From NCBI RefSeq assembly GCF_964204645.1, contig NC_134034.1:6732914-6796913 (forward strand): DNA of 64,000 nucleotides. The letters run 5' to 3'. Positions 1-26,645 of this stretch are shown piece after piece. Within the stretch, counting starts at the first letter, position 1. Each line of letters opens with the position of its first letter. The notes under the pieces are model-generated. The model had not been told where the DNA came from, ran no database searches, and was given only the letters and a program-made list of their open reading frames with translations. This stretch comes from Tubulanus polymorphus. Taxonomy: Eukaryota > Animalia > Nemertea. The position numbers and the translations under genes are program-made.

Positions 1-357
1 ATAATTACATAATTTACTATAACCTTTTACTACATTTTCTGATATCGCGTCATTAATTCTAGCTGTTCTCGCGGCTTCATAAATCTTAAATAATCTAATA
101 ATTTCATCTGATTTCATTGTATCTAATTCATTATAAGTTAAATTTTTACCGACAAAATTTTTACATTTTCCAGATGCTATTAATATTTCTAATTGATGTT
201 TTCAATAAAGATAATATTCATAATTATTATTTGTTGTAACATTATTTAAAGCACCATCATCTGGAGTTAATTTTGTTTCTGTTATTCCTAAATCATCTAA
301 AGTTTTTTCAATTGGAACATCACCATTTTTAGATTTTATTTTCTTTTCACCTACCAT
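1..357 (-). pseudogene. Conserved Polinton hypothetical protein, frameshifted, runs off the window
   Basis: ATG at 357 in TATATAAATG context. Reads MVGEKKIK..., then after a frameshift QLEILIASGKCKNFVGKNLTYNELDTMKSDEIIRLFKIYEAAR, resembling a small gene I recall from invertebrate Polintons. Confidence 0.55.
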
Positions 358-388
358 TTATATAACAAAAAAATTAGTTGTGATGTTG

Positions 389-658
389 CAACTAGAATTC
401 AACTAGAATGTAACTAGAATTCAACTAGATTAACAAGCTAGTTGAAATATTGTTTTTATTTGTTTCTTGTTAAATCTAGTTGATTTTTGTTCCAACTACT
501 AATAACTAGAATTCAACTAGAACGTAACTAGAATTAAACTAGATTAACAAGCTAGTTAAAATATTGTTAAATCTAATTGATTTTTTGTTACAACTACCAA
601 TAACTAGAATTCAACTAGAATGTAACTAGAATTCAACTAGATTAACAAGCTAGTTGAA
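389..658. repeat. Intergenic repeat: three ~58-bp blocks built from AACTAG(AATTC/AATGT) subunits
   Basis: aactagaattcaactagaatgtaactagaattcaactagattaacaagctagtt occurs at ~390, ~504 and ~602. Confidence 0.9.
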
Positions 659-659
659 T

Positions 660-1272
660 TTAAATAAATTCATATTTAAATGGGTGTTGTAATCTAAATA
701 GTAATTTTGATCTTTTAATATTTTTCAATTTATCCATATATTCATTATCTAAATCATGTGGAATAATATCATTTTCCTCAAGTGCATTTTTCATCGATTT
801 TCTATCTTAATTGTATGTAGAATAAAACTAGAAATCTTATATTCTCCCTAAAGTCTTTAACAATTGAATTATATTTTTGATTTAAAACCCATGTTGTTAT
901 CCCGAAATGTCTTCCAGAGAAAGCTAGATAACATAACTCGCTTTCTCTAACTTTTGAATCATGTAGATTTGCACAATCATCTATAATGAATAATGTATTT
1001 GATCCTTTATAAATATCAATTGCTATTTCAATACAATTATCTAAATTTTCTTTTACTGTTTTAGGATCTAATATAATAAATTTATTATTTCTAGTAATAT
1101 TTCTATCATAAGTTTGATTAAATTCGTACGTTGGGCAAAATAATACTATATTATCAAAATAGTTTTCATAAACAGTTTCTAATAAATTTAATATAAAATA
1201 AGTTTTTCCACAATTTGTTACGCCAGATATTAACATATTATGAGGCTCAAATATAAATAATTCCTTATTCAT
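660..1272 (-). pseudogene. A32/FtsK-HerA-like DNA packaging ATPase (3' end frameshifted)
   Basis: Walker A ISGVTNCGKT, Walker B LFIIDD, GRHFGI and NQKY motifs in ORF 802..1272. The C-terminus (DRKSMKNALEENDII...HPFKYEFI*) continues in another frame to a stop at 660. Confidence 0.9.
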
Positions 1273-2851
1273 TCATATATTTTTAATTTTACTTGATAAT
1301 ATCCATTCATTGAATTTATCTGGCCATCCAACCCATTTTACTAAAGAATATTTTTTTCTTTTAACAGTTTTTGTTTTTTATACTTTTTCAATTTTATATT
1401 CTTGTTCTAGATTTTTCAGTAGTTAGACTCAATTCTTCTTCATAAAAATACCCATAAACTTCTTCACCATCTAAATCTTCTAATTTATAGACATATGGTT
1501 TTGTTGTTATTACCTTTTTTATTTTATATATTTCTCTAGTAAAATTACGATCGTATCCTTTGTCAAATATCTTTTTATACTTAGAAATTCTAACATTTTG
1601 ACCAACTTTAAATTTAGGTTCACCAAAATCATCTACAAGAAATGCTCCATATAAATTATTCCAAACAATTTCAGCATTTTCAGGTTTTCTAGCATCAATA
1701 GGTCTCATTCCAATACAAGAATGATAAGAATTATTATATCCTTCTATCAATTTTGGTAAAACATCAATCCATTTTAAAGTATTATTTGCTGTAAAATATT
1801 TCCACATTCTTGTTCTTAATGTTCTATTAAATCGTTCAACAACTGCTGCTTTTTTATCCGATTTTGTTGAAAAATATTCAATATTATGATTATCTAAGAG
1901 TTCATGAACAAGTGAATTATCAAATTCTTTTCCATCATCAAATTGTATTTTTTCTGGTTTTAGTTTATCATCCGAAAGAAATTTTCTTAAAACATTTGAT
2001 GTTTGTACAGCATCTTTTCTATAAAGTGGGAAACTCCATACATAACGACTAAAAATATCAATTATATTCAATAACCACCAATAACCATCATTATCTTTCT
2101 TAACATTTTTCATATCAATTAAATCTCCTTGCCACTGTTGATCTACACAGGGAAGTGTGATGAGATGGAATACGGACGCTTTTAATTGCCGGATGTAGGC
2201 TATTCAATTCAGCCCGTACATCAAAGGTTACCGCAACAGCAGTAAGCTACGCTTATCGAGTGTGTGTTACCAGCTGAACACCAGTCAACATCAACTTTGA
2301 TTTGCTCGCAGAACAACCCGCAATAGTTTTAGCCCGATAAATGTTCTGCGATCGATACTACGCATGCGCACTGCAGTTCATTGAACAACGTGGAAGTGGC
2401 TGTGTATACACATATTTTTCTTTAGAAAATCGGTTGAAATTCAACAATTTCTCGAAAAATTTGTCCAAAAAGGTATGTATTTTTATTCTTCTATATCTCC
2501 GAAACCCGGTATCGGAACATTAAGTATTTATATTGTGATTAAAGTCTGTTTTTACGTGTTAAACATATGTTTTTGCCAGTTCGTTCCGATTCCGGGTTTA
2601 GCGTTATTTGGGCCTTGAAGATGTCAAATATTTCGGCCCAGACTCGCGCAGCTTTCGTTTCTGACGTCATGTTGCTATGTTACGACACAAACATATACAC
2701 GAAGTATGATCTTTAAAATGTGTATTTACTACATAATAATGTTACTTAATAACGCTTACATTAGGCCTACAAGTTATTGTCCCCCATATAAACCAAGTTT
2801 TCTAAATAGCATCAGCAATCTCATTTAATTAACCTTTTCTTATTTTTAGTC

Positions 2852-3184
2852 ATGGATCTTTGTCGATTGTGTGGAAAAAATGCAAAACCTCCGGATCATC
2901 GTCCTATCGATAAAAATAATTTCAAAAGCCATGTGAAGGAGTTGTTCAACATTGATTTTGATGATGATACTGAACAGTACCCGATATATATCTGTTATAT
3001 GTGTCGTGTCAAATTACAAAAATGGCGTAAGAACGAAAACGTTAAAAAAACTGTCCCTGTGACTATCAAATTAAAACAATGGACATGTAAACCACTGGTT
3101 AATTCCAAGTCTGGACGGCGACGTATTTGTAGTCAAAATTTTATCGATCGATTTTCCATAATGTACTGCTGCCATTCCATTTGA
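2852..3184 (+). pseudogene. Truncated zinc-finger ORF (CxxC...CxxC; RAG1 N-terminal/Chapaev- or ZAD-like) inside the TIR element
   Basis: LCRLCG...LFNIDFDDDTEQYPIYICYMC, preceded by a polypyrimidine-AG acceptor at ~2849. Confidence 0.55.
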
Positions 3185-3794
3185 ACTGAATTTAAATACT
3201 CGATGGTTAATCACTTCAGTCATAGCCTTTTCCAAATATATAGTGTTCCTGCAAAAATAATAATAATGATTATTATTTTAACATGTACTTATCTGGATTT
3301 TTTATATTATGTTTATATATTATTTTCTGTATTCGTTTATTATTTTATAACCTAAAAGGATTGTATTGATTATAAAAATAAATGTAAAAAATACCTGTAT
3401 GTGTGTTTTCTCGTGATCAGATCGCAGTCTCTGGTCAGCTGAGCCTGAGAAGTACCTATATGAAAAAGAAAAGGAAAGAATAAAGTGCCTGCAATTAGGT
3501 GGAAACTATTCCGATATTACATTGATTCAAAAGGAATAACACTCACTAGAATCGGCCGAATTAGTTGATCCTGATCCAGAGGATTCCCGTAATATTTCCG
3601 TATCGATCTGAACCAATTCGTCACTATCAAAGAATAGTTCGTCAAAATCGTCATCATTTATAATTTCGTTGACAACCGTTGCCATTTTAATACAGAGGAA
3701 AGAACCGATATCACGATTGATAAAACACTATCCGTCTGAAGCGATGTAGAGAGAATCGCACAATGATAACGAAAAAGTCCAAAAATGTTAGTAG

Positions 3795-3841
3795 TTTATT
3801 CAACGTTTCGTCTATGTCCTAATAGTCATCTTCAGAAATAA
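3795..3841 (-). ncRNA. Minimal type I hammerhead ribozyme (Penelope-type)
   Basis: Minus strand reads ttattt-CTGAAGA-tgactattaggacataga-CGAAAC-GTT-gaataa: core boxes, stem I ttattt/gaataa, stem II ctat/atag and palindromic AACGTT stem III. Confidence 0.6.
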
Positions 3842-4583
3842 TGAATACTACAGAAATTATGAGAGATATATACAATCCAGAGACAAAGAGACTATTTCAA
3901 GTAATCAGAGATGATACAAACTAAAGGAAAATTAACGTAGAAACAGTTACACGCTAAAACAGATTAAAGAGAAGCAGTTAAGAGACAAACTAGGGGGCAC
4001 TTAAATTTAAGACAATTGTGAATACAAGTTGATCGACTAAAATTGATGAGGGGAAATCAGGTGTTGAGTTTAACCAGTTTACAGAGGAATTTTTATATAA
4101 GTTTATTATGGGATGAAAAACCGATATTCGGAAACAACTGAATTATTACGGAGATTCCCGATCTCGCTGGTTATCGCTTATCGGCGCGTTACGTAACAAA
4201 GCGCTCGCCGGCGAACCGTTATCGGCTTTAGGGCAATTACAACGCACATTCGACAAGAGCTGCACAATAGCGTCCGTATTCCATCTCATCACACTTCCCT
4301 GATCTACATAACTTACCATAGTTTTATATTTTCTAACAATTTTTTTATGTGTTGTGTATGTTGGTTGTTCTAACATAAATTCATTTATATCTTTATATTT
4401 AACTAAATTGTGTGGGATTATCTTATCTAATTTATCTTGTTTTACTTTACGCCATATATTTTTAGTAGAAGAATAAGCAACCGAACTCTCAGGGTTGTAA
4501 TATAAATTTCTTAAATATTGTTCTTTAGTATTAGGAGTTTTTTTACCTCCCATTTATATATCGTTAATTTTAACTTTATATTT

Positions 4584-5831
4584 CTAATATTGAATACTAT
4601 CTAACTGTGAATTTACAATATTTAATTGTGCATCAGATATAATATAAATGTGCATTTTAAAATTTTTGTCTCCTCTTTTCTTTTTCATGAATAATTGTAT
4701 TCCATCTTTAGTGTTCTGTAGTTTTTTCCCAGAACCATGTAATGAATTATCCTCTGTTGTTCTAAAATCTAACCATAATGCATATTTATTGCCGGTATAA
4801 TAATCAATTTGATTAATATTACAATTTTCAAATGATTTTACTTTTTCATTCATAAAATGTTTTCTAATTTCTGGCCACTGATCTATCATTCTCATTCCTT
4901 GACAAAATATTTTATTTGCTATTCCTTCGATAGTTATTTCTACTTTTGTTATTTCAGGATTATAATAATTATCTACCTTTATTGCACCATTAGAATATGT
5001 TGCAATGGTAAAAAATATTAATATACCTTTAATAGATCTTCTTGGGAAGTTAATATTCTCATTAATTATTTCATCATTTGCATTAATAGTTACAGTTTTA
5101 AATTTATCAATATAATCATATAATAATGAAAATCCTTGATTGTATTGAGTTTGAATTATACTAGCAATATTTTCATTAGTTACTGTGTTATATTCTAAAC
5201 ATATATTCGATAATTTATAACCCATATCTTTAACAACGCTAGATAATACAATTTCATTTACAGGAGCAAATGTTATCTCAAATATAATATCTTCTTGAAT
5301 TTTATATTTATATCAAGGTGCATTGTTATTTATCAATTCAAAGTCTAATGGAATTTTATATTTGCTTCCATAAATCTTTTTAATCAAATTATCTGTGGCA
5401 CGAGTTACTATTGCGTCATTAGCTCCTGATCTTAATTTATTATGGTTTTCCGATTGAATACCCTGAAATATCATATTATTTCTATTTTCTTTAGTTAACC
5501 ATAAATCTTTATAATGCATAAATAAATTATAATCATCTAATGAGAAAACTGTTTCTGGACCAATCTTTATAGTTAATTTTTTAATCAAATATCTCCCAAC
5601 ATTATCGACAACATAATTATTATCATGACCAGTTACTTTTATATCGGCTGATAAATAAATACTGTTTGGAACATAAAAAGTATTTTGTGTTAATCTAGGA
5701 ATTCTAACATATAAAGTTTCATCGGGATTAGTATTTGAAGGATTATGAGTAATTATATGATGTGATCTTTCTGCTTTAATAGCATTAGATATTCTAGAAA
5801 TCTTAGAAGGACTTATATAACTCCCACTCAT
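4584..5831 (-). pseudogene. Double jelly-roll major capsid protein (one internal stop)
   Basis: ORFs 5313..5831 and 4584..5225 are in the same frame, separated by one TGA (~415 aa total). Motifs HIITHNPS, LYVRIPRL, NVGRYLIKKL, PRRSIKGIL, YYNPEITKVEITIEG and ALWLDFRT...LHGSG are typical of invertebrate Polinton MCPs. Confidence 0.82.
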
Positions 5832-5865
5832 TTATTTAACAAAAAAATTAATTATTTATTTTTTA

Positions 5866-7302
5866 TTATTTTTTTTCTTGATATCTTTTTGTTATCATAT
5901 TCACTAACCCAAAAATAATAGCACTTACAACTGTAATTAAAAATAAAATAATATGTTCAGCAGCAAAGTTAAGAATATTACCTGCAGATTTCAATATAAA
6001 ACCAACAATTGATGCAATAATTCCTGGCAATGCTGCAGCAGATTTCTTTGATAGTTCCCATAAATATTTTGCTAACTTTTTTAAACCATCCTTAACTTTA
6101 TCTTGTATAGAACTATTATCATTCGGGGGTTTATCCGGCTTATTTGGAGTAGGAGTAGATTTTAAAGCATTTGATATAGCTAAACCCATTGTTGTAAATA
6201 ACATAGTTACAGCTGTTAGAATTGAAAGAATTGTTATTCCTTCAAATTTAAATAATAATTTTATTCTATCTTTCAATGATATTTTAGAATCTGGTTTTAT
6301 TAGATATCTTTTAAAAACATCTTTTAATCTATTAATATTATAATCATATGATTTTAATAATAATTTAATTTCTTCTTTCTGTACTTCTAAATTATTTTTT
6401 TAATTATTAATTTCTTTTTCTAAACGTAATTCTTTTTGCCTATATTCTATTTCATCAATTACTTGATGATCTAAATCAGACTTTAGTTGTTCTATTTCTT
6501 TATTTGCATTAGTTAATTCTTTTTCCAAATACATAATTTTTTGATGTCTTATACTTTTATTATGTGCAATTTTATCAGCTTCATTTCTTATACTAATAAT
6601 TTCTCTAATTGCTTCATCAGAAAATATATCTAAATCTTCTAATTCTTGATCTGTTGCATCAAGTAATCCATTCGGTAAAAGTTTTTCAATTGAAACTCTA
6701 TTTGATTTAAGTTTACTATTTTTGGAAGTTATATTCTGTTCAGAATTTGTTTCTGTTTCTGATTTCTTTTTGATTATTTCAAATAATTCATTAATTCTTT
6801 GTTTAAATACGTCTATATTATCATCTATTTCTTTTTGTGTAACATCAGTTATTTCATTACTATTACTTATTCTTTTAATTTTATCTGGTTTTAAATTTTT
6901 CAAAGTTGATTCCGCTAATATTTTTTTATTATTCTTAGAAGTGATATCAATATAATAATCACCTTTCAAACTATAATAGCATTTACCATTATCTAAAAAT
7001 TTTAATTGATCTGCTAAAGGTCCGACGTCTTCATCATTTATGTTAAGTTTAGAATTTTCAATTATACGTTCTAATTTAGGTATTTTGTTTAAATTATCTA
7101 AATCTTGTTTTACTAAACCTGGGTTTAAATTTTCAGGATTAAATTGTGATTCTGCATTTTTAATATAATCAGGCATATTTAAATTATTATTATATCCTGG
7201 CTCATTAAAACTTGTTTCATCAAAATCAGGTGGTTGTTCATCACTTATACCAGGTTCATCAAAAGGATCCATTCCAATATCTTCTCCACCTTCTACATCC
7301 AT
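5866..7302 (-). pseudogene. Polinton coiled-coil/membrane protein, split into ORFs 6400..7302 and 5866..6276
   Basis: Acidic N-terminus, coiled coil, then hydrophobic EGITILSILTA...ALPGIIASIVGFIL...FAAEHIILF helices. TAAATG start at 7302. Confidence 0.65.
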
Positions 7303-7318
7303 TTATATAATAAAAAAA

Positions 7319-8704
7319 TTAAAATTTAAAATATAATATTCCTCCTATAACAATTCCTATACAAGTTAAAGCTAATTTAGTATTTTCATGGGATTTATTA
7401 TCATCATTTAGTTTAATTATTTCATGTTGAATTTTATCGGTTTTAATATTTTCTGATGTATTAAAATCCGGTTTAGAATCATTATTTAATTTAATATTCT
7501 TAGTTTTAGTTTCAGTTGATTGAATATGTTTTTTATTTTTTTCTCCTTCCATTAATTTTGGAGCAGTGATTATCTTTTTATTTATATCATTTAATCCAAA
7601 TGAATTATTTATTGTTGCAGTTTTAATTAGATTATTGTAACCAATTATGTTTCCCATCTTGAATACTAAATCATTAGAAATAATTAATAGATTAGGACCT
7701 ATACAATAATTTAATCTAATATGTGATTTATCTAAATAATTTTGATATCTTACAATGTTTTCTGGAATCGATCTATTTTTATCATTATGAATGGAATCTT
7801 CAAATAATACTTTGAATTGTTTCTGTGTATCAAATGATGTATTTAAATTTCCAATCATTGGTGATCTTGTTTCAACTTGCGCACCTAAAATACATATCAA
7901 ATAAGTTCTAATAGATTGATTTATTCTTTGTATACCAGCTTCAGTTAAACCTTCACTATTTTCTAAAATGAAATAAACCCAACCATTATTGTTTTCTTGT
8001 TTTAAATTATCATAAAATGTCGGTAATTTATTGAAATTTAATGTTTCTAAATCCTTAGTTCCTATTTTACCATAACCTAATTTATTATTATAGATATTAT
8101 AAAAACTATTAGATGGTATGGGAAGTGCACAATATTCTGCAATCTTTTTAGGGCAAGGAAGTGATCTTATTGTTCCAATGTTCGTTCTAAAATCAGAATT
8201 ATTTATATCTATATTAAATTCATTACAAATTTTATAAAACTTTGACAAATTAATATTATTATCTAATTCTTTAAAATACCTAGATCCTGGTAAAGGACAC
8301 TCTAATTCATTTAATATTAATCTTATTTGAAAGTATGTATGAAATCTAAATAAACTTTGAATTAATTTATATTTAGGATTATTCAAATGATCATTCCAAC
8401 TAATTCCACAACCTGTTGTTGCACAATAAACAGCTAAATTTAATTGGTTCTGCCAATACTTCATATTAGATTTTAATAACCATTGTTTTTCATCTTTCAA
8501 TTTTTTAAAATCAATTAAATATACATGAAATATATTTTCCATCTTTGCATTAAAATTATTAGTTTCATTAACATAAATTTCTAAATTAGTAAATGAATCT
8601 AAAACTTCATTTCTATATGTAATATCTTTATTAAAATCTATTGCTGGAATATTATATTTAATTGATTTATTATATTGGATAGCTTTTGGAAAACTATCTA
8701 CCAT
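7319..8704 (-). CDS. Conserved Polinton protein of unknown function with C-terminal TM helix (461 aa)
   Basis: Intact ORF with the MKYWQNQLNLAVYCATTGCGIS..DHL / FRFHTYFQIRLIL signature and a TAAATG start. Confidence 0.75.
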   Translation of the reverse strand: MVDSFPKAIQYNKSIKYNIPAIDFNKDITYRNEVLDSFTNLEIYVNETNNFNAKMENIFHVYLIDFKKLKDEKQWLLKSNMKYWQNQLNLAVYCATTGCGISWNDHLNNPKYKLIQSLFRFHTYFQIRLILNELECPLPGSRYFKELDNNINLSKFYKICNEFNIDINNSDFRTNIGTIRSLPCPKKIAEYCALPIPSNSFYNIYNNKLGYGKIGTKDLETLNFNKLPTFYDNLKQENNNGWVYFILENSEGLTEAGIQRINQSIRTYLICILGAQVETRSPMIGNLNTSFDTQKQFKVLFEDSIHNDKNRSIPENIVRYQNYLDKSHIRLNYCIGPNLLIISNDLVFKMGNIIGYNNLIKTATINNSFGLNDINKKIITAPKLMEGEKNKKHIQSTETKTKNIKLNNDSKPDFNTSENIKTDKIQHEIIKLNDDNKSHENTKLALTCIGIVIGGILYFKF

Positions 8705-8720
8705 TTATATAATTAAAAAA

Positions 8721-9155
8721 TTAATAATTTATTAATTCTTTTAATAATTTATCTTGTTCTTCAACTGTTATATGGCCATTTAAACTTATTATATAATCTA
8801 GTGTATTCTTTAATTTATTAATTTCTTTTATATTAGTTTTAATTTTTTCTTTATTACTTTTTATATTTAATTTTGAACTTATACCAGTTAAAACACTTGA
8901 ACTTAATCCTAATACACCAATTAATATAGCTAAAGGTGTTAATGGGCTGAATATTGCTAAAAATGTTATTACAGAACTAATTGTAACCGAACCACTTATA
9001 ATCAAATAATATATAATTTTACTTTTTAAATATTATTTCTTTTTTATCTTTAAGTCACTTTCAAATTCTAATATTTGTTTTTCTAAATATGTTTTTAATT
9101 TAGTTTTATTTATATCATGAGGAATAATATCAATATTATTAACTTTATCTTCCAT
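8721..9155 (-). pseudogene. Small Polinton membrane protein (frameshifted 5' part)
   Basis: TAAATG start at 9155; hydrophobic hairpin in ORF 8721..9005. Confidence 0.5.
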
Positions 9156-9174
9156 TTATTTAGAAAAAAAATTA

Positions 9175-9570
9175 CTAATTAGTAAATTTATATGCTACAA
9201 ATATAACAATAACAGTTCCACCTAAAATCCATATTATTTCATATTTCTGTTGTTCTTTACTTGGGGTATAATAATCTGATAATTTAGGTTTGTATACATG
9301 TAATTTTTCTTTATTGGTTACTGCGTTATATATATCTCTATGTGAAATATTCTGATCAATTAATTCTTTATTGATGTAATCCATATAGTTTTGTCTCTTT
9401 TCTCTATATTCTTCTGCAGCTTTATCATATTTCTCTAATGCTAAGTTATGTCTTTTTTGTTCTGTTAATGATCCATTTTTATCAATATGTTTAAATAAAT
9501 AACCACCACCAGCAAATGCAAAAGCGTTAACAATTGCCGATCCTATAATAGTTATAATTGCAGAAGCCAT
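9175..9570 (-). CDS. Conserved small Polinton protein with N- and C-terminal hydrophobic helices (131 aa)
   Basis: MASAIITIIGSAIVNAFAFAGGGYLF...EQKRHNLALEK; TAAATG start. Confidence 0.75.
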   Translation of the reverse strand: MASAIITIIGSAIVNAFAFAGGGYLFKHIDKNGSLTEQKRHNLALEKYDKAAEEYREKRQNYMDYINKELIDQNISHRDIYNAVTNKEKLHVYKPKLSDYYTPSKEQQKYEIIWILGGTVIVIFVAYKFTN

Positions 9571-10107
9571 TTATTTAACAAAAAAATTACGCATTTATAT
9601 AGGAGGAATATATTTTTGATTTTCCAAATAATCAATAGTTAAATTAGATAAAGTAACTGCTAATGTTAATTTTAGAATATCATTTATATCAAATCTATCA
9701 ACATTAACAATTCCAATTTTGAATACTTTTTTTAATACCATTGAATAACCAACAGTTCTACAAAATATTTAGTTATTTTAGTGATGATTAATTCAACATT
9801 TATTTCATTACTAGTTTCATTTGTATATATTTCAATTATTATTTTTTTAATATCATCGATGATAAAATCTTCATCTAATTCATAAAATCTTAAAGATTCT
9901 CTAATTAAATTAGTAATCTTTTCTACATTAAAAGTTTCTTTATCTATTGTTGTTTCATACTCAAATGTTGTTTAATTAGAAAATGTTATATTTTATATAT
10001 GTGTAATTACATCATTAATGTTAAATTTCATTTCTTTCTCACGTTTAAAATCAAATCCAAAACATATGCTCGGCCCAACAGTTATATTCATTTATATAAT
10101 GAAAAAA

Positions 10108-10866
10108 TTACTCTCTACATCTTATAACTAATTCATAAATTACAGGAAAGTTATTCAAATCAATTAAATATCCATTGTGATTTCTTATTTCTAATTTAAA
10201 ATTATTGAAATGTGGAATACAAGGTTTGAAATCACATTCAGTTAAATTATGATTTATTTGAGTTCCAAATTGTTTAACATTTTTTAATGGTAAAATATTT
10301 AATAAACCAGAATTACAAATTGTATCTTTAGTTGCTTCAAATGTTTTTGTTGGGTCAATCAAATTGCAATAAATATAAAAATGTGTAAAAGGTATTAAGT
10401 TTGATTTACCTTCTGCGTGTGCTGTAACAATATTTGGGTTAATTCCTAACAGTTTAGCTAAAGGTTTTCTTACTGTAAATTTAAATTGTTCGTTATTATC
10501 TAACCTAATCTTTATTTTATTAGAACTATCACTTTTTAAAATTCTAATACTAAATCCGGAATCACTTCCTAATTTAGCTCGAGCTTTTCTATTAATTTCT
10601 TGTGCTAATGTATCTAAATTATATAATCCTGGTTTTAAATATATAAAATACCATTCATTCATTTTTTTGTAAAAGATTGAAAAAATTAAATGTTCTAGAC
10701 TTTTATCCGATATATTGTAAAATGAGTTACATAAACTTATATTAACTAATTTTAAATCAACACAATTCTTAAATTCTCTATCTAATTGTACTAGTAAATT
10801 ATGTGATTTATAATTTGTAAGTTTTCTAGAATCAACAAATATTCTGTATTCTTTTAATTCTACCAT
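10108..10866 (-). CDS. Minor capsid protein (penton, single jelly-roll)
   Basis: IFVDSR..., ISLCNSFYNI, PGLYNL..LA..IN, LAKLLG, FYIYCNLI, LEIRNHNGYLIDLNNFPVIYEL pattern typical of Polinton/virophage mCPs. Confidence 0.78.
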   Translation of the reverse strand: MVELKEYRIFVDSRKLTNYKSHNLLVQLDREFKNCVDLKLVNISLCNSFYNISDKSLEHLIFSIFYKKMNEWYFIYLKPGLYNLDTLAQEINRKARAKLGSDSGFSIRILKSDSSNKIKIRLDNNEQFKFTVRKPLAKLLGINPNIVTAHAEGKSNLIPFTHFYIYCNLIDPTKTFEATKDTICNSGLLNILPLKNVKQFGTQINHNLTECDFKPCIPHFNNFKLEIRNHNGYLIDLNNFPVIYELVIRCRE

Positions 10867-10934
10867 TATTTATAACATAAAAAAATTACCGCTCATCACT
10901 AAAAATTAATTTAAATAAAATTTTTCCTTAATAA

Positions 10935-12251
10935 ATGGATGAGAAGATAGCATGCGAAATTTGTGGTGAACTTCTAAGAAAAAGTAATATGGCTCGACAT
11001 ACGAAAAAACATGATGAAAATTATAAACCCCCTAAAATAAACTGCCCAAAATGTAATAAATTATTCTCAAGAAATTATGTTAAAAAACATTCAGAGAAGT
11101 GTAAAATTAATGGCGCAACGGCTAATGTTGATAGTAACGAAAGTAATAGTAATTCTGCTGAAGTTGAACCTGAAGTTATTTGGAAAAGACCTTTCTTATT
11201 CTATGACAAGGATAATATAAAAGATCATTTCTGTAAGCCTTGTCGAATAAAATATAGCCCTGAAAATATAGAAGATTGGGAGAATCATCAATTTCGTAAA
11301 GTACATATAGATAAAATTTCTAATAAATTTGAAACTGAATTCAATGAAAGAAAAGATAATTTATTAGAAAAAATAAAATATGAGAAAACGTTACCAGATA
11401 ATAAAGAAACAGTTGAAAAGTTAGAAAAACAATATAATGAATTAACAAGAAAAACATATTATTGTAAATATTGTAAATTGATTATTACAACAAGTAATTC
11501 AAATCTACATAATAGAACAATAAAACATAAAGAAAACGTAAGAAAATACCAAGAGCTTAATGATGATCTATTACCAATAAATTATAAACAAAAATGTCCA
11601 CAATGTAGTTATGCGACCTTAAGACAAGAAGGTACTGTGTTATTTTGTAATGAATGTGGATGGCAAAAGAATTTATTGGGTGAAGAAAAAACTAGAAATT
11701 TTCTCATAGATCCAAAATTAAATTATCTTGATGAAATTTTTAAAATATTTTCTATAGAAGATCATACACCAGAATATATGCAATGGCTTGAAAAAATGAA
11801 AATAATAGAAAATAAAAATGGTGAAATAACTAAAAAAGATATTATAAAAACAATTATTCCGTCAACATTTAACACAAAAGAAAAGAAAATGTATTTATAT
11901 TTATTATTTAACGATTATTATGAAAAACCTAAATTAACAGAAGAAGATATGAAAAATATAAAAAAAATATTCAAACAAATATTAATGTATCATTTGGAAA
12001 ATAGAATAACAGATTCAATTAATTATGAATTCTTTTTAAATAAGATTGTAAATTATTTAAACATAAATATTATAATTCCATTTGATGAATTAACAAACAA
12101 AAAGAAACAAAGAGAGCGAGATGAAATGTGGAACAAGATAGAACTTTATTTAAATGAGAAAAATGGAATGGAAGAAGAACCTGAACAATTAAATGGAAAT
12201 GAAGAAGCCAATAGTGATTTCGATTATGATGATATTGATTTTATGTTTTAA
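10935..12251 (+). CDS. C2H2 zinc-finger protein with C-terminal poxvirus VLTF3 (A2L)-like domain
   Basis: Intact 438-aa ORF. N-terminal CxxC..H..H fingers. From aa ~221: CPQC-x13-CNEC zinc ribbon, NFLIDPKLNYLDEIF, KIFKQILMYHLEN..SINYEFFLNKI and DEMWNKI, matching recalled VLTF3 motifs. Confidence 0.75.
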   Translation: MDEKIACEICGELLRKSNMARHTKKHDENYKPPKINCPKCNKLFSRNYVKKHSEKCKINGATANVDSNESNSNSAEVEPEVIWKRPFLFYDKDNIKDHFCKPCRIKYSPENIEDWENHQFRKVHIDKISNKFETEFNERKDNLLEKIKYEKTLPDNKETVEKLEKQYNELTRKTYYCKYCKLIITTSNSNLHNRTIKHKENVRKYQELNDDLLPINYKQKCPQCSYATLRQEGTVLFCNECGWQKNLLGEEKTRNFLIDPKLNYLDEIFKIFSIEDHTPEYMQWLEKMKIIENKNGEITKKDIIKTIIPSTFNTKEKKMYLYLLFNDYYEKPKLTEEDMKNIKKIFKQILMYHLENRITDSINYEFFLNKIVNYLNINIIIPFDELTNKKKQRERDEMWNKIELYLNEKNGMEEEPEQLNGNEEANSDFDYDDIDFMF

Positions 12252-15200
12252 TAACCATAAGGTAATGTTTTTATTCCATCATCCAAAATATGTCTTTTAT
12301 CATCAAATGGATTTAAACTAGTTTTTTCAACTTCATTAATGTACATCTCGTGATCTTCTGACCTTAAACAATTCTTTTTATGTTCCATTACAATTGATTT
12401 ATATAAACACTTTATATAATCTTGAAATTCTATATGTTTATCAACCACATGTTTTGTTATTCCTTTTAACTTTTTAGCTTCATGATCTTTTGTTCTGTAA
12501 CTATACATTTTACTTCTTATCCCAACAAATTCAATCATTTCATCTCCCCCTTATTCATCTTTAAATTTACCAGGAATCTTTTTATTATCATTGCTAAATA
12601 GTTCATGATCTTTGGGATAATTGCTAAAATCAAAATAATGTTTTAATGTTTTTAAGTCTTTTGTTATATCATTTGTCTTGATTTTTAGTATGTAGGCGTC
12701 CGTATTTTTGGCTATTAATGGAAATCCACAGTTAAATGTGCCATCTTCAGTTGATAAGGTTACATATTTCAAATAAATCTTTAACTTCTTCTGTTAACTC
12801 ATTTTCTACATGGCTTAAATTAAAGCAATTTGGTTGAGATTTAATCAATCCAATATTCATATTAAAACCTAATGAATTGCATAATATATTTAATCCTGAT
12901 ATAGCAACTTTTCCTTTTTGAGCTGAAGATATTGTTTTGCGGTTTTTGAAACTTTTAGTACCATCTGCTGCGTAGAATCCAATGAAGAACCATTTTCTTA
13001 AATTATCTTTTGCATTTAATACATAATCTGGAACTATCTTTTCTTTTGTTGAAGTATTACTTTTAACTATTGCATGAATATAGAATTCATCATTATATTT
13101 TATAGCAAAATCTTTAGGATTATTTACAAGTATTCTATAAACTGCTGTTGATTTCATATGATCCACGATTCTAAATATTTTATGTGAATAAACTTCTTCA
13201 CAAAATTTCTTTGTTCTTTCTAATAATATTAAGTCTTGATTGCATAAATACCAGCAATATTGAGTGCGATTAACATAATTATACACACCTGCTGAACCAT
13301 CTCCCATGAAAAATCCTTTGATAAAATATTCTTTTTCATCCAATGTTTCGGGTTCTATATTATAAATATTATCAATTATTTCATCAAATGACATATGATT
13401 CATTCTTTGGAAAAATCTTTTATGTAATAATTCATCTCCAATTTTTATATCAGTTGGATTTATTTCATCACCATTTCGTTTAATTAAACTATGATCTTCT
13501 GTAACATCTACAAACCCTAATTTAATTCTAACTCTATAAATTTTCTTATTTGTTTTATGCCTAATAATTCTTTAATTTGTTCCATCCATTTCTTGTCCAA
13601 ATATCCATTAAACCATTTATTTGTATTAATTCTTTTTCACCATATGAAATATAACATTCATTTTGTTTTGGAATTATTTCTGAAATTCTTCTAATCAATA
13701 TTTTATCATTACATTTTAATAATATTGGGGTGTTAGCTGTTACAGAATCAAAATATAATATTTCAATATGCTTTTCCCCAAAAAGTGGTTGTAAAACATT
13801 ATAATAAAAATCATACATTAATAATTTTGATACTTCTAAAACAGTTGAACCAATGAATATAGGTTTATTAAATTTCATTGACGTTCTTTTTAATTTAACT
13901 GCTGTTAAATAATCTTCAAATCTTTTATTTCCTAAATGTCTAGGACTTGATTGTAAATGTCTTAATCGTTCAGAATTATTTACTAATTCAATATCATTTC
14001 TATTTCTAATATTTTCACATGTTTACCATAAAAACTATTATTCATTAATTTGAAGAAATCTTTTTCAAAATCTGTTTTTGATATTGTTCTCTGTTGAGTA
14101 TTGAAATCTATATATTTTTCTAACCACTTCGATTGATTAAATTCAATATATCTATGTACTTTCTTTAATTTCATTCCTTGTTTTAGATAAAATTTTAACA
14201 TTCTATAATGAACAATATAATTGTTTTTATTATTTTGAGTAAGAATTAATTTTTCTGTAAAAACATGATCATTCGGTTTTATTTTCTTCTGGTATTCACT
14301 TAAATAACTATCATCTACAGTTAAATGTTCTGGGCAATAAGGTAAGTTTCTTGTTTTAAACTTTATATTTTCAGGATATTCTAAATCAACTACAAAGAAA
14401 TAACCAATTGGTGCTTCATCTTCTAAACTCATAATTGCGCTTTCCCAATTAGTTTTATCATCATTTTCAACTTCTGTTAATATAAAATTTCTCCCATAAC
14501 ACCACTAATTCCACCTCTAATTGATTTTTCAAATAATAAAACCATGTCTGGTTCTTTTAATAAATCTAATTCTACATTTGTATATTTTAAACCACATTGC
14601 CAGGTTAAACCAGGACTAGAGTAGCAATAACAAGGATCAACATTAAAATGATTCAAATTAACTTCTCTAAATTTTTCAAATATGTCAGCCAATATCATAA
14701 CATCTGATTTTAAATATAAATCAACTAATTCACCATGATTTTTCATCTTAAAATGGTTCCAAATATTCAATGTTCTATTAAACACTTCGTCTTTCACATA
14801 CTCCTCTTTTAATTGATCATAAAATTGATCTTTTAATAATTCTGTTACATTATAATCATTGTGTGTTTTATAAAATGAATAAGGAATTGCACCTTTATAT
14901 CTCAATAATTTAAAATCTTGTTCATTTGGATAATAATATCGAGTTATAACAAAATCATTATCAACTAAACTTTTTGATAAATTATCTAATGAACTTGCTA
15001 GAAATCTATAAGAATCTAAAAATCTAATGCAACCAAATTGAAATGAAATATAATTTTCAGATGTTTTAGCTAATAGTTTAAAATCATATTTTCTTACATT
15101 TGCTTCATTCATAGCATTATATTCTTCTATTTCTTGATTAATTGCGCCCAATTTTCCCGATAATTGTTTTATAAATAGATGGGTATCATAGCCTGATAAA

Positions 15201-17199
15201 TTATGAAATAATATTGGTACGAAATTTACTTTTTTAGCTTGTAAATTGCAATCTTCATGAGCAGCTCCACGATATTTTGAATTTAAATGATCATGATCTC
15301 TAACTTTTTTATCAAATGAATAAAAACGTTTTTCACAATAACAACAATGAGTTGCATAATTAAAATCAATTTCATCTTCTTTTGTCATAACTATTCTTTT
15401 ATTTTTGTTTAATAATTTTGCAAAATCACTTTCTAATTCAATCATTTTGTCACAAAAATCATTAACTACATTTTCACCTCTAAAAGAAATATATTGACTT
15501 TCATATAATTCAGGATAGTTTGATTTTATGTAAATTCCATAAGCAGCAGCTCTTTGATGAACTTTTTTAATTGTATTTATAATTGGTGGGTCTTGAATTA
15601 TATCTTCATTTAATTCATTTCCTTTATCCATTGATTTTAATAATTGCTTTTTGTTATATATTTCTTTTCTATCTTGATCAGTTAATTCTTTATTCAACGA
15701 TTCAAAATCCCCATAAATTACAAATGGAATAATATTTTTAAATTTATGATTAGTAAATTTCAACTTACAATCTTTTTTTGTTGGCATTATTAATTTACAA
15801 AAATCTTTATTATCACATAATTCTTTATGTTTTAATAATGTGTTCTCAGTCATAAATTTAGATAAACATTTTCTACATAGATAAATTTTATTATGGTGAT
15901 CACTTTCTGTTCTAAAGAATAAATCAATTTCTTTTAACCACATATAATGTTCATTTTCTTCTTTTTTGTAATATAACAAATCTATAGCACTTTCATCATC
16001 ATAATACTCTGTTAAATATAAAGCTTCCAATGTATAATCTTTAATATTTTCACCTTTTGTCTTTGGTAATTGCATTAATTCGAATACATTTATTTTTAAA
16101 TTATTAACTTTTTCTATCTTAGGAATCATTTTTATAGTTACTGGATATTGATCAATTTTATATAATGTTTCATATTTCCGGTAATTTGTTATTCTAAAAC
16201 TATGTGTAATATCTTCTGTTGGGTGTAAACAACTAATAATTGACGATAGAAAACATTTATTATCTTCATTTTGAACATTTATTACTGCTTTTGTTGTAAA
16301 TGGTAATTTAATATAAGATGATGCTTTAATATCCTTTTCTGTTGTAAAGTTTGAATCATTCTTAAACATTTTATTACTTTTTGATGTTTTATTTCTTTTT
16401 GTATTATAAACATTTAAATCTAAATATATAATTTCATTCAATGTTAAGCCAGAACCCTCAAAATATCTTTCTTCAATATGACGTTTAAATTCATTAAATA
16501 TTTTTTCTAACTTCTCTTTTATTTGTGTTTTTGAAATTATTTCTTCAGAGTGAGTTTGAATATTATAATTCATTTTTTCTTCTGACTTTATAAAACTTAC
16601 TTTCCCAGAGATACTAATTTTTGGATATTCAACATCTGTTATCAAATCTAGTATTTTTTCTATTATTTCATTAAATTTACTATAATCTTCTATTGTTGTT
16701 CCTTTAAAGAATCTAAATATAATAGCTGCAGGACCAATTTTACTATGTAATGTTTCTAATATTTCAATTGTATCTTTTATTTCTAGTGAATCAATATAAT
16801 TTCTAACATTTTCCATGTAAGGTTTATTTGAATGGATTTAGTTTTTGAAGTTGGTTTTTTTACATTTTGAGGTTTATCATCGAAATAATCTTTTCCTAAA
16901 ACATTATTACTCAAATTTTGATGGTGTTTTTGTGATTCGAGATGTCTATTATAATTCCTTTTTACTATAAATTCATTACAAACTTCACATTTTATTTCAT
17001 CCACATTCATATTTTCTAATCGTTCTTTTCTTTCATTGGATTTTTCTGGAGTTTCAAAATCTATTACATTTTTTATATGATTTGCAGATTTTTCATGTTT
17101 AGATTTATTAGATTTATCGATGTATTTTTTACAATATGGGCAATAATATTGATTTTTATTAACATTATTGTTTTCTGTCTGGTACTCACTCTCTCCCAT
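12248..17199 (-). pseudogene. polB: Protein-primed family B DNA polymerase (pPolB), fragmented and intein-containing
   Basis: ORFs 16783..17199, 14477..16816, 13983..14432, 13561..13878, 12551..12772 and 12248..12538. Motifs SSYIKLP/INVQNEDNKCF, ExoI YGDFES, endonuclease-VII-like VRDHDH...AAHEDCNL, FHNLSGYD, RFLDS, YLKSDV, motif B KLMNNSFYGK, motif C YFD/TD, GKFKDE, EFVGIRSKMYS, KLKGI, PFDDKR. Motif A region is missing. Confidence 0.95.
12704..13746 (-). mobile_element. Intein with LAGLIDADG homing endonuclease inserted in pPolB motif C (pol-c site)
   Basis: N-extein ...LYFD | SVTANTPILL (block A) ... DVTEDHSL (block B, shifted frame) ... GFFMGDG and GFYAADG (LAGLIDADG helices) ... LSTEDGTFNCG..IAKN (blocks F/G) | TDAY C-extein. 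Two frameshifts. Confidence 0.93.
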
Positions 17200-17281
17200 T
17201 TATAAGGAAAAAAAATTACTTGTGGTGATGAGTGGTGTTTAGTACTCTAGTACTCTGGTATGAACCCCTATTCCAAATACT

Positions 17282-17882
17282 TGTTTAAATTTGAATGTAC
17301 TAATAATTATAAAGAATATAAATAAGAAAGATGATATTTCGGCTTACATTGTATATTACTATTTAGACAAAATTAAATATCGTTCATTATGGGAATTGTG
17401 TTCATTGGATAAATGAAAAGTCTAGGAATCAGGACCCCGGCTCTGCGTCGTGGTGCTGCGTTGGTTGCTCGTTCCCTTTTACGGCTGGCCGCAAGCAGGG
17501 TTCTGGATTTTTCTTGGGTGTGGACGCAGCCGTATAAAGGGGGCCGCACCTCGAGAGAGAGCGGACTATTTTAGAAAGCATTTTCAGGGGAAGCATTAGA
17601 AGACTATAGAACAGATTACTTTCGGCTATCCGGTTGAATTGCATCTTCTTGTGTGCGGGATTTGAAACAAAATTCTAAATTAAAAGGTAGGGAATTTTAT
17701 AAATTGTTGAGAGTAAAGTTCAATTTAAATTGTTAGAATAAAAGTTGAGTATTATCATATTTAAATCCGGAGTTCCTTTTATTCCTTGGTTTTCGGGTTT
17801 CTGTGTTCGTGGTCGACTTTCTCGCCAGGGACCGGAGTTTGTGAAAGAGGAAAAAGACAGTAGAGAAAGGGACCGCGGAACA
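17282..17882 (+). repeat. 5' LTR (start tentative, end ...GGAACA firm)
   Basis: Ends in CA at 17882, three bases before the PBS. TATA-like TATAAA at ~17533 and AATAAA at ~17737. Confidence 0.7.
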
Positions 17883-17885
17883 TAT

Positions 17886-17903
17886 TGGTGCCGAAACCCG
17901 GGA
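17886..17903 (+). promoter_or_regulatory. Primer-binding site complementary to the tRNA-Phe 3' end
   Basis: TGGTGCCGAAACCCGGGA is the reverse complement of the eukaryotic tRNA-Phe 3' terminus. Confidence 0.9.
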
Positions 17904-18425
17904 ACTCCGGAATAATATATAATAAATTATCTACTTTAAATTCCAATTTAAATAACACAAAAAATTTCTGAATTTCTTATACGATAGTATTATATATGAT
18001 TTCTGAATTATGGATGAAGATATCATAGAGGCCCAAGAAACCTATGATTTTCTGTTAGAAGTATTTACGGATGGCCTATACGGTCTCTATTGGGCGGAGC
18101 AGGATGCGAACGCATCCGGGGACGAGGAAACATTTGAGCTTATTGTAAATGCTAATGGGCCAAAATTAAGGCACCTTCGAAATTGCCTCGTAGAAACCGC
18201 GGAAGTGCTGGGTAAAGAGCACAAGGACCCCTCATGGGCGGAAAGCTCTAGGTTTAATGCGATGATCTTTCAATAAATTTCATACATTGGCATTATTCAT
18301 ACGAATTTTAGGGATAATAATAATAATTATATAATGATAATAATAATAATAGTAATATCAGTTAGAATATCGGTAATAGTAATAATAATTTCAACAATAT
18401 AAATTTTGAACGAATTTTTTTTACA

Positions 18426-19601
18426 ATGACGACTCGAAGTCGGGCCCAAGGGGATCCGGGTACGGCTGCTGATAGTTCGGTCAGCAATGACACAGTCATG
18501 CGGGCGCTGACCGGGCTTCAGGGGCAGATGGGCTCGGCAGCAGCGTTTGTAAATTACAGCCTCCTTCCGAAATTCACAGGCCGGGACAATCAAGATGTGG
18601 ATGAATGGTTTAGGGGATTTGATAGGCTTGCTGAGCTCAGAGGCTGGACCGCTGAGGTAAAAAAGAAACAGATTTTCTGGTTTCTGTCCGGACCAGCTTT
18701 GGTCCTTTTCAACGATCTACACATCGATCAAGAAACTGATGTGGCTGGCAACTTAAAAATTACCCCTTGGGATGATATCGTTGCTGCTTTCATAAAACAG
18801 TTTAGCCCGACAACTTGGGCCATAGTCAGGGAATCTGCCCTGACAACCATGAAACAGGGGGAGGGGCAACCAATTGACCAATCTGCTGAGGACATCGATC
18901 GGATGGCCTCTAGCTTAAAGTTCTCTGATCACCAGAAGAAAATTTTGTTAATTAACAACTCGAAACCGGAAATTTCCTTTTATCCGCTGTCCCAGCGGCC
19001 CGCTACTTTTAGAGATGCCTGGGAGGCCGGTAGGATGGCAGAACACATAGAGAAAAAGAAGAAAACTACCCCCTCGGTTAATCAGCTTGAGGCAAGCCCG
19101 AATCAGGAGGTACGAGAAGTCATGGCTGAATTGCGTGACATGTTTAAACAACTCATGTCAACTCAGAATAGGGATTCGAACCCTAGACGCCATGACCAGC
19201 ATGAGAGGGGAGTATCTCCAGATGAAAGGCGATCTCTACAGAGATCAAGCGGAGGGAGCGTGATTTGTTACCGCTGCCACGCCCCGGGACATTACGCCCG
19301 TAACTGCCCTACCTGGCAAGTGGATCAGGGATATCAGAGGCGCCCAGATGACAGAAATCTTAATAATTCTAGCCCGGCAAACTCTAGACGTTATTATAAC
19401 AATAGAAGATTTAGCAATCAACGCACAGGTTTGAATTGGCCAAATCAGGGAAACGCCATGGGACCTCATCCTGTAGGAGACCAGCAAGGGTGGGGTCGAA
19501 CCACCATAAATGGTCGCCCTAGTGTAGCCAACGAACATCCTATGAGGAATGGCCGCCCAGTGACGAATCGACAATACGGCCCGCAACAAATGCGTCGCTA
19601 G
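18426..19601 (+). CDS. gag: Gag with CCHC zinc knuckle
   Basis: LPKFTGRDNQDVDEWF capsid motif, MKQGEGQ, and CYRCHAPGHYARNC. Confidence 0.9.
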   Translation: MTTRSRAQGDPGTAADSSVSNDTVMRALTGLQGQMGSAAAFVNYSLLPKFTGRDNQDVDEWFRGFDRLAELRGWTAEVKKKQIFWFLSGPALVLFNDLHIDQETDVAGNLKITPWDDIVAAFIKQFSPTTWAIVRESALTTMKQGEGQPIDQSAEDIDRMASSLKFSDHQKKILLINNSKPEISFYPLSQRPATFRDAWEAGRMAEHIEKKKKTTPSVNQLEASPNQEVREVMAELRDMFKQLMSTQNRDSNPRRHDQHERGVSPDERRSLQRSSGGSVICYRCHAPGHYARNCPTWQVDQGYQRRPDDRNLNNSSPANSRRYYNNRRFSNQRTGLNWPNQGNAMGPHPVGDQQGWGRTTINGRPSVANEHPMRNGRPVTNRQYGPQQMRR

Positions 19602-19986
19602 GGGAATCTGATTTCTGGTGGGATGATAGTTACTACTATCAACACTCGTATTACGATGATTCTTCCTGTAGAAATGATGATTTTTATAATGAGGACAGGT
19701 ATTTCTCGTCGCAATCGTGTTTAGATGATTGCGAATTATTTGATCCATCAGAATATGTTCAGGACTTGGAAACTGATTGGACTGATTCCTATTATTTTGA
19801 TGAAACTGAACTTAAAGATTATTCTGGAACGTTCTCTGAGTGTCGGACACCCTCGTGGGGGGCAGATCATGTTTATAACGGTCAAGACAAAGAATCTGAA
19901 TTTGAAAATGACTTAAAAGAAGATAAAGTTCGATTTAAGGATAAATTCTATGGAGAAGGGCATAAAAAGTCACATTTTGTGATCCG

Positions 19987-24508: not shown

Positions 24509-24568
24509 AAGGACGACGACTGTTCCAAAGTTTGCCATATTGACGTGGCTCATTGTTATCTTTTCAGA

Positions 24569-26178: not shown

Positions 26179-26402
26179 GTGTGGAACTGAGAGAAGCGGC
26201 AAAACTCGTAGTGTCATCAGTTGAACCTGAAATTGTCGCTGTTGACGTTGAAGCTCACACCGACAGTCAACAACCGAGCATTCTGGTCCAAATGAGGGTC
26301 GTCTCTATCCACGTCTTTATTGAGATTTTGAATCACTTAGTAACATCGCATTTGGAGGAATCAGTGTTATACTCTCCTCGCGATGTTAATATTCTGAAGA
26401 AC

Positions 26403-26645
26403 TGCATCTTCTTGTGTGCGGGATTTGTAAAAAAATTCTAAATTAAAAGGTAGGGAATTTCATAAATTGTTGAGACTAAAGTTCAATTTAAATTGTTAGA
26501 ATAAAAGTTGAGTATTATTATATTTAAATCCGGAGTTCCTTTTATTCCTTGGTTTTCGGGTTTCTGTGTTCGTGGTCGACTTTCTCGCCAGGGACCGGAG
26601 TTTGTGATAGAGGAAAAAGACAGTAGAGAAAGGGACCGCGGAACA
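26403..26645 (+). repeat. 3' LTR, 5'-truncated (PPT/U3 missing)
   Basis: Near-identical to 17640-17882; ends ...GGAACA. Confidence 0.88.

Follow-up and report, generated by a model that had tools for sequence, protein, structure and literature searches.

Mavirus, an endogenous virophage of Cafeteria, carries the late promoter of its helper virus before every gene and, when infection sets in, becomes active again from within the host genome (PMC6723459). Among Polintons (Mavericks), of a class reported to have animals as almost exclusive hosts (10.64898/2026.06.19.733378), both the late transcription factor VLTF3, published in coral polintoviruses and an earlier described subgroup (PMC11131425), and poxvirus-associated Polinton-like viruses are already known; the accessible text on the latter (PMC11296320) contains no analysis of promoters, VLTF, inteins or TAAAT. 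In vaccinia, a late promoter is built from a T-containing core, a spacer of 5-7 bp and TAAAT(G/A) (PMC5294985), and slippage at TAAAT yields 5' poly(A) leaders in vaccinia as well as in yeast linear plasmids (PMC6211774). Animal Polintons may be autonomous viruses, transposons or parasites that exploit large DNA viruses. Here, we analysed a window of 64,000 nucleotides (the whole stretch examined) of Tubulanus polymorphus contig NC_134034.1, which opens with the right-hand part of a decayed Polinton provirus; the left edge of the window cuts the element, the left end of which lies outside the visible stretch. We found its genes to start in a fixed-register motif resembling a poxvirus late promoter and one of its intact genes to encode a VLTF3-like protein. 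This leads us to propose, with a probability of about 0.55, that the active ancestor of this multi-copy element was a virophage-like parasite of a poxvirus-type helper, the late RNA polymerase of which it would have used. Motif and pox-type late factor together make the choice between these lifestyles testable.

A bipartite motif at the gene starts

TAAATG occurs 45 times in the element and exactly ten of these occurrences are located at gene starts, as the initial annotation had counted; the remaining two of the 12 curated starts read TAAATAATG (10866) and TGAATG (1272). TAA directly precedes ATG at 10/12 curated starts compared to 35/655 other ATGs, a background that includes in-frame inner ATGs. 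As the latter cannot follow TAA, the test was redone against the first ATGs of short open reading frames (ORFs), of which 29/412 are preceded by TAA (p=8e-10). Of the 12 starts, three are those of broken genes, whose choice was guided in part by the motif; in the motif-blind subset TAAATG is found at 7/9 starts (p=6e-7). Position -3 is a T in 11 of the 12 starts and a purine in one. Since the Kozak context of animals prefers a purine at this position, the motif is not a Kozak context.

Next to the start codon itself, an upstream block, which the initial annotation had overlooked, contributes to a bipartite motif of 22 nt, TAATTTTTT-N7-TAAATG, which is present at 8/12 starts and before none of the 655 other ATGs. 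The TAATTTTTT block is positioned at -19 in these eight starts, with one more copy shifted by 3 nt, and its leading TAA is kept at -19 in 11/12 starts; nine of the ten minus-strand copies of the block precede a gene start. TAAAT(G/A) overlaps the start codon in 11 of the 12 starts. The motif precedes replication, integration, regulatory and capsid genes alike (pPolB, the protein-primed DNA polymerase B; integrase; VLTF3; capsid). With 7 nt between TAATTTTTT and TAAATG, the element motif has both the core and the spacer of a poxvirus late promoter, and its layout matches that of the vaccinia late promoter.

Two further sequence features were observed around the starts. CATCAC is located 12-41 nt upstream of the start motif in pPolB, VLTF3 and the leftmost gene (17230, 10894 and 385), and TTTTTCCTTA before TAAATG is common to pPolB and VLTF3, hinting at a possible promoter subclass or zinc-finger site.

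To position the motif among other elements, we used 23 Polinton-like loci of at least 7 kb, taken from 93 fetched loci with a pPolB alignment after dropping one duplicate. TAAATG was found at 17/228 long-ORF starts compared to 253/5141 short-ORF starts (p=0.065) and is not general in Polinton-like loci; six of these 17 starts belong to L009 alone, a Polinton-like contig with a protease-like/rve/chromodomain fusion, and many other loci have different AT-rich blocks abutting ATG (AAAAATG, ATATAATG). Conversely, L243, a 20-kb locus with entomopoxvirus-type gene content, has TAAATG at 6/17 starts compared to 34/462 (p=0.0014), and nine giant-virus loci have it at 3/21 starts (p=0.2). A scan of IMG/VR with the 22-nt pattern gave at least 120 matches, each listed record containing a single match, and 21 of the 120 listed open an ORF. 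No close relatives of the capsid or of VLTF3 were found in the IMG/VR and GTDB contigs.

The late factor and the intein

The protein encoded by the VLTF3 gene (438 aa) consists of N-terminal zinc fingers, a four-Cys ribbon and a helical domain. Pfam Pox_VLTF3 was matched when the C-terminal 137 aa were scanned alone (27.6 bits, cut-off 25) and not with the whole 438-aa protein or a 217-aa piece. In the Atlas, 28 of 30 matches carry Pox_VLTF3, and a Foldseek search with the AlphaFold model gave 16 matches at E<=0.001, ten of which bear the name VLTF3, so that profile, Atlas and predicted fold together bear out the VLTF3-like gene of the initial annotation. Against the PDB, Foldseek gave zinc-finger matches only and VIA, likewise with the model, a best Z of 7; no solved VLTF3 relative was found by sequence, nor did a word-index search with the VLTF3 region return a match. 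The predicted helical domain (model residues 253-412) aligns weakly to cyclin-fold chains (Z ~6), which, in combination with the zinc ribbon, might recall TFIIB.

A full HMMER scan of 1.84 billion representatives with the VLTF3 part retrieved four proteins (P0121, P0122, P0123 and P0124). The zinc-finger-VLTF3 fusion is common to the window protein, P0121 and P0122 and absent from pox proteins. P0124 is the only match with a recognisable stand-alone family (Pox_VLTF3 and A2L zinc ribbon); the four-Cys ribbon of the window protein aligns to it, with no match to the A2L zinc ribbon profile PF08792 itself. P0124 is 63% identical to the VLTF3 of L243, and judged by sequence the closest stand-alone VLTF3 relative found is an insect-poxvirus protein.

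In a tree of 17 rows, two of them pox-type (vertebrate-poxvirus and verified iridovirus VLTF3s were not included, and P0123, P0177, L219 and unverified iridovirus candidates were left out), the window protein, P0121, P0122, P0124 and the L243 protein are on one side of a branch with 100/98 support and eight giant-virus VLTF3s and four of the L028 type are on the other. Under LG the branch joining window and pox-type VLTF3s keeps a support of 98, and Dayhoff-6 recoding leaves 86; the approximately unbiased (AU) test rejects a grouping of the window VLTF3 with five giant-virus VLTF3s (p=0.013). In this tree the protein groups with the entomopoxvirus-type A2L; a poxvirus origin is favoured, not proved, and the gene was likely taken from a poxvirus-type virus. 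In L028, a locus with a related capsid, an other-type VLTF3 (5447-6088) is closest to giant-virus VLTF3 by HHalign (99%), suggesting independent VLTF3 captures.

The polymerase gene is interrupted at motif C by an intein, which starts with Ser, ends with Asn, is followed by Thr at +1 and contains two LAGLIDADG-type motifs (LAGLIDADG_3 25.7 bits, above the cut-off; Intein_splicing 22.9 bits, below it). It resembles PI-PkoII (E=7.6e-6) and its junctions are identical in P0001-P0003; two frameshifts inside leave no open frame able to splice in this copy. Among the best 120 of 217 matches in longer proteins, the top one is P0001, an intact Polinton-type polymerase (60%), and at least eight are pPolBs. 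A quick tree was made of the window intein and 94 of these 120 (26 were dropped because no pol-c site could be parsed or their length was odd, and some ends are mis-parsed). In this tree a single clade (SH-aLRT 100) unites the nine pPolB inteins, and it is nested within those of RNA-primed PolBs (93 and 98 for the enclosing sets). P0008, a polymerase of the sister group, matches the PolBs of three giant-virus bins (29-53% per segment), while no poxvirus source could be assigned among the matches, which bear no taxon names. The annotated pol-c intein of the giant-virus PolB kind is, as such, real.

P0003 contains the intein (44-48%) in an extein without detectable similarity to other pPolBs, and therefore the intein has moved between Polinton polymerase types. 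Among 92 Polinton-like loci examined, none of the 41 showing motif C has it. In reads of one genomic run under the same species label, of which 12% was read, the central bin of the intein has a depth of 213, 64-84% of the neighbouring polymerase bins (254-336), and the intein is therefore present in most sister copies; no read joint skipping it was present among 15 listed of 367. Being common to at least eight other Polinton polymerases with two unrelated extein types, the intein is an old acquisition that is silent on the present helper. The proposal that it was gained during co-infection with the helper of this element fails, as it is shared by nine Polinton polymerases. Related inteins were also seen in type II topoisomerases (P0005, P0056, P0101-P0103 and others), and P0006, a polymerase-delta-like PolB, has the same pol-c intein.

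A proposed helper-dependent Polinton and its alternatives

The initial annotation had brought forward three signs of dependence on a pox-like helper. Promoter and VLTF3 stand, in a stronger form than first stated, whereas the intein gives no support. Pox-type late machinery is favoured because no RNA polymerase gene is present in the visible 17 kb (the left part lies outside the window), the messages would have no templated leader, position -3 is a T, and AATAAA is not avoided on the coding strands (60 observed compared to 54.9+-4.1 expected). The last argument carries little weight, as other Polinton-like loci show the same and the host-side control (4 compared to 5.4 sites) is too small to calibrate. 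As a separate candidate signal, T-run terminators were considered and rejected: TTTTTNT (9 compared to 17.0+-3.0) and T6 (2 compared to 11.3) are depleted on the coding strands, as are A6 (35 compared to 51.3) and A7 runs (7 compared to 20.8), and the shortage may therefore be general homopolymer avoidance.

Under the favoured reading, transcription would start inside TAAAT, where slippage of the polymerase would add a 5' poly(A) leader, replacing the T at -3 and giving a translatable message without a templated leader. Lacking an early promoter class, the element would be unable to start itself, and its integrated copies would lie in wait until infection, in the manner of mavirus. The zinc-finger-fused VLTF3 may join the late initiation complex of the helper and bias it to the promoters of the element. 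The intein would be a selfish element in its own right, having come into Polinton polymerases in the distant past from a PolB of the giant-virus type before spreading between Polinton lineages.

Several results weigh against this explanation. On the side of the factor, the AU test does not reject a single Polinton VLTF3 clade (p=0.155), and the pox rows of the tree have an odd composition and long branches. The mriyaviruses and ariadnaviruses, described as lacking an RNA polymerase and inferred to be nuclear, keep VLTF3 as well (PMC11253617, 10.64898/2026.08.29.747986); as the factor has moreover been published for Polintons, its presence alone is no evidence of helper dependence. As regards the motif, the starts of the entomopox-like locus have no T-block, and most other Polinton-like loci do not avoid AATAAA either. 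L028, with its different VLTF3, uses TATATA-type starts (TAAATG at 1/11), and L009 has TAAATG at 6/7 long-ORF starts and no VLTF3 in its 9-kb fragment, so that these two loci, the only ones available for the comparison, do not show motif and VLTF3 to be coupled. The virus group indicated by the intein is not that of the poxviruses, and neither a helper virus nor a transcript was found; four short pieces from a run that may be of RNA speak neither for nor against expression.

A first alternative is an autonomous nuclear Polinton with a private promoter, in which the zinc-finger-VLTF3 would bind the motif and bring in RNA polymerase II of the host, so that no helper is needed. We consider this unlikely, though it is in line with the retained VLTF3 of viruses without an RNA polymerase, with a zinc-finger fusion shared with P0121 and P0122 and foreign to pox proteins, and with the integrase, which means a nuclear phase; the weak predicted likeness of the helical part to a cyclin-fold chain in the human pre-initiation complex would be compatible with a TFIIB-like role. 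Other points speak against it. VLTF3 and pPolB are positioned behind the same motif as all other genes, which leaves no host-readable early promoter unless the factor is packaged; an autonomous virus would need such a promoter for its own factor. Mavirus was taken as the model. Furthermore, the motif overlaps the start codon. A TATA-like reading would therefore put the start of transcription within the ORF, a message begun in TAAAT would have no leader in front of an ATG with T at -3, and the 60 AATAAA sites show no depletion.

That the helper was not a poxvirus but an iridovirus, or a different cytoplasmic large DNA virus infecting invertebrates, is improbable in our estimate. This possibility stems from 12 mutually related loci with overlapping orthologues, which we take to be iridovirus-like from their gene content. 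They have TAAATG, in the form AATAAATG, at 54/164 long-ORF starts compared to 145/2972 short-ORF starts, and their upstream block is within 2 mismatches of that of the window in 14/54 of these compared to 2/145 short-ORF controls; in two such records a gene start fits the 22-nt pattern in full. TAAATG therefore marks a pox- or irido-type late initiator and not poxviruses uniquely, and cytoplasmic late transcription has been proposed for iridoviruses (PMC5294985). However, the VLTF3 of the element is pox-type, and a candidate iridovirus VLTF3 (unverified, without a Pfam VLTF3 match) is dissimilar to it (HHalign probability 0.4%), while at position -5 the iridovirus-like starts have A in 91% and the window has T in 6/10. 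As an observation in its own right, AATAAATG opens a third of the long ORFs in loci with iridovirus content (L223-L234, L129, L141 and L156), with A at -4 in 57/57 starts, and no description of this habit was found in the accessible promoter review literature.

That the architecture is inherited without present meaning, general AT-rich Polinton starts having drifted to TAAATG by compact stop-start packing, is highly improbable: although AT-rich blocks abut ATG in many related loci and, for three genes, the preceding gene ends with the TAA of the upstream block, the leading TAA is held in a 19-nt register at 11/12 starts, TAG (0/17) and TGA (1/17) hardly occur before long ORFs, the TAA within TAAATG ends an upstream gene in 0/10 cases, and the block also stands ahead of the pPolB, 252-aa and leftmost genes, where no upstream gene abuts and a mere stop codon with a T-run is thus not the source.

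Taken further, a helper-dependent ancestry would turn this animal Polinton lineage into endogenous virophages whose helper is a still undiscovered poxvirus infecting an invertebrate, probably a marine one. They would have captured A2L and fused it to zinc fingers to steer the RNA polymerase of the helper to their own late promoters. Their many germ-line copies would act as an inducible parasite, and motif and VLTF3 would predict the existence and the type of the helper. We offer this extended version tentatively, as a bolder claim that may well turn out wrong. If true, the 22-bp motif and the pox-type VLTF3 predict a poxvirus-type virus in this host.

Structure of the provirus and comparison with known systems

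The coordinates of the element and its motifs are listed in Table 1. Within the element, GC content is 0.21-0.26 (inserted transposon excluded) compared to 0.30-0.52 in the flank. Most core genes of this copy are broken, and VLTF3 is the sole plus-strand gene. The polymerase is 34-61% identical along its length to the intact P0001, which carries PF03175, identifying it as a protein-primed PolB, and the candidate capsid protein is 33% identical over 424 aa to a 423-aa protein of L028. No maturation protease gene was found in the visible part of the element, which continues beyond position 1, nor did a repeat search reveal a partner for a terminal inverted repeat.

Table 1 Features of the Polinton element and its start motifs (positions in the window)
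Feature	Position	Strand	Remarks
Decayed Polinton provirus, right-hand part	1..17255	-	Continues past position 1; right end approximate
pPolB	12248..17199	-	N-terminal zinc fingers and endonuclease VII (HNH) domain; in seven pieces
pol-c intein	12704..13746	-	Between YFD and TDA of polymerase motif C
Zinc-finger + VLTF3 fusion gene	10935..12251	+	Intact, 438 aa; VLTF3 part ~11577-12200
252-aa gene, possibly minor capsid protein (weak)	10108..10866	-	Pfam DUF5901 E=0.0015, below cut-off; homologue in L006
131-aa membrane-type protein	9175..9570	-	Kept in related Polintons: 27% to L028 ORF from its residue 2; match in L053
SLATT-like gene with two transmembrane segments, broken	8721..9155	-	Pfam SLATT_fungal E=0.012, below cut-off
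461-aa gene, intact, function not assigned	7319..8704	-	No Pfam match; none among fetched loci
Stop-split gene (300 + 177 aa)	5866..7302	-	Homologue is 455-aa L028 gene beside L028 capsid gene (25% over 302 aa)
Candidate major capsid protein gene, one internal stop	4584..5831	-	Pfam Capsid_N E=0.0012, 18.8 bits (cut-off 24)
rve integrase, split by DNA transposon	1394..4553	-	PF00665 35.1 bits (cut-off 32.6)
Inserted DNA transposon, ~2.15 kb	2148..4301		36-nt inverted repeats, 7-bp flanking duplication, zf-AD ORF at 2852-3184
A32-type packaging ATPase	660..1272	-	PF04665 (Pox_A32) 49.8 bits; frameshift near end
Leftmost broken gene, leaving window	1..357	-	Weak homology to L028 ORF
TAAATG starts	17199, 10935, 10091, 9570, 9155, 8704, 7302, 5831, 4553, 357
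Motif of pPolB	17197..17218	-	First gene, no gene upstream
Motif of VLTF3	10916..10937	+	Variant upstream block
Motif of 252-aa gene	10864..10888	-	TAAATA form, ATG 3 nt further
Motif before broken ORF	10089..10110	-	Homology does not confirm this start
Motif of 131-aa gene	9568..9589	-
Motif of SLATT-like gene	9153..9174	-
Motif of 461-aa gene	8702..8723	-
Motif of 300+177-aa gene	7300..7321	-
Motif of candidate major capsid gene	5829..5850	-
Motif of integrase	4551..4572	-	Variant upstream block
Promoter-like motif of ATPase	1270..1291	-	Variant block, TGAATG
Motif of leftmost gene	355..376	-

The element is a multi-copy, diverged family in its host, since the reads cover all 30 bins with a summed depth of ~180-1150, mostly at 90-99% likeness. 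The inserted DNA transposon is skipped by 140 sister-copy reads; its inverted repeats begin with CAGGG and its 3523-4109 part is highly repeated in the host reads. At 17238, 591 sister-copy reads depart from the window sequence, and the right end of this copy may therefore be shortened or rearranged. Between the ATPase and the leftmost gene, three copies of an ACTAG-rich 77-nt repeat are present at 370-658. Beyond the element, at 370 bp from its end, a long terminal repeat retrotransposon (17627-26645; ~250-nt terminal repeats 97% alike) contains gag, a decayed pol and an env-like ORF at 24569-26178, and the host flank at 41271-63958 has dispersed arrays of a 154-bp repeat family.

In the openly searchable literature, supplements excluded, we found no paper describing, for an animal Polinton, either late promoters of the pox type or an intein with a HINT domain; PMC12220804, which mentions inteins three times, and PMC5718144 may be relevant to the intein part. 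Promoter analysis is absent from the accessible text of the Polinton literature examined (including PMC8502044, PMC11131425, PMC8715426 and 10.1101/2023.08.22.554363), the last of which does not mention inteins in that text either; endonuclease insertions in pPolB have been suggested to stem from intein invasions (PMC11161782). A Polinton intein clade that crosses between unrelated types of polymerase is a trace of old contact, both with replicons of the giant-virus type and among Polintons that shared a cell.

Compared to the known systems, the element shares pPolB, rve, A32, capsid-like and SLATT-like genes, a length of ~17 kb or more and a multi-copy state with the Maverick/Polintons as these are described (also 'adintoviruses', Polintoviricetes; PMC8502044, PMC11131425, 10.64898/2026.06.19.733378). 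Unlike in L028, its VLTF3 is pox-type and zinc-finger-fused, and its polymerase holds a true intein. With mavirus (PMC6723459) it has in common that it integrates, that it encodes pPolB and rve and that one late-type motif stands before essentially all genes; the dependence of mavirus on CroV was, however, demonstrated by experiment, with another motif and in a protist host, whereas the present element is read from its sequence alone. The entomopoxvirus-associated Polinton-like viruses (Barth et al. 2024, PMC11296320) are likewise proposed to be poxvirus parasites of invertebrates which gained genes from the poxvirus. They differ from the window element in being ~12 kb, with divergent capsids and often a tyrosine recombinase or primase-helicase, and they were found together with their poxvirus (in occlusion bodies), while here the link is drawn from DNA. 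The cytoplasmic linear plasmids of yeast, pGKL (PMC6211774), differ in that they bring an RNA polymerase and a capping enzyme of their own and lack both capsid and integrase. The pol-c inteins of family B polymerases (PI-PkoII, PDB 2cw7, and those of giant-virus PolB) occupy the same motif C site, with the same Ser/Asn ends, Thr at +1 and LAGLIDADG; in contrast to these, the window intein resides in a protein-primed Polinton polymerase, and the nine inteins of this kind form a clade of their own.

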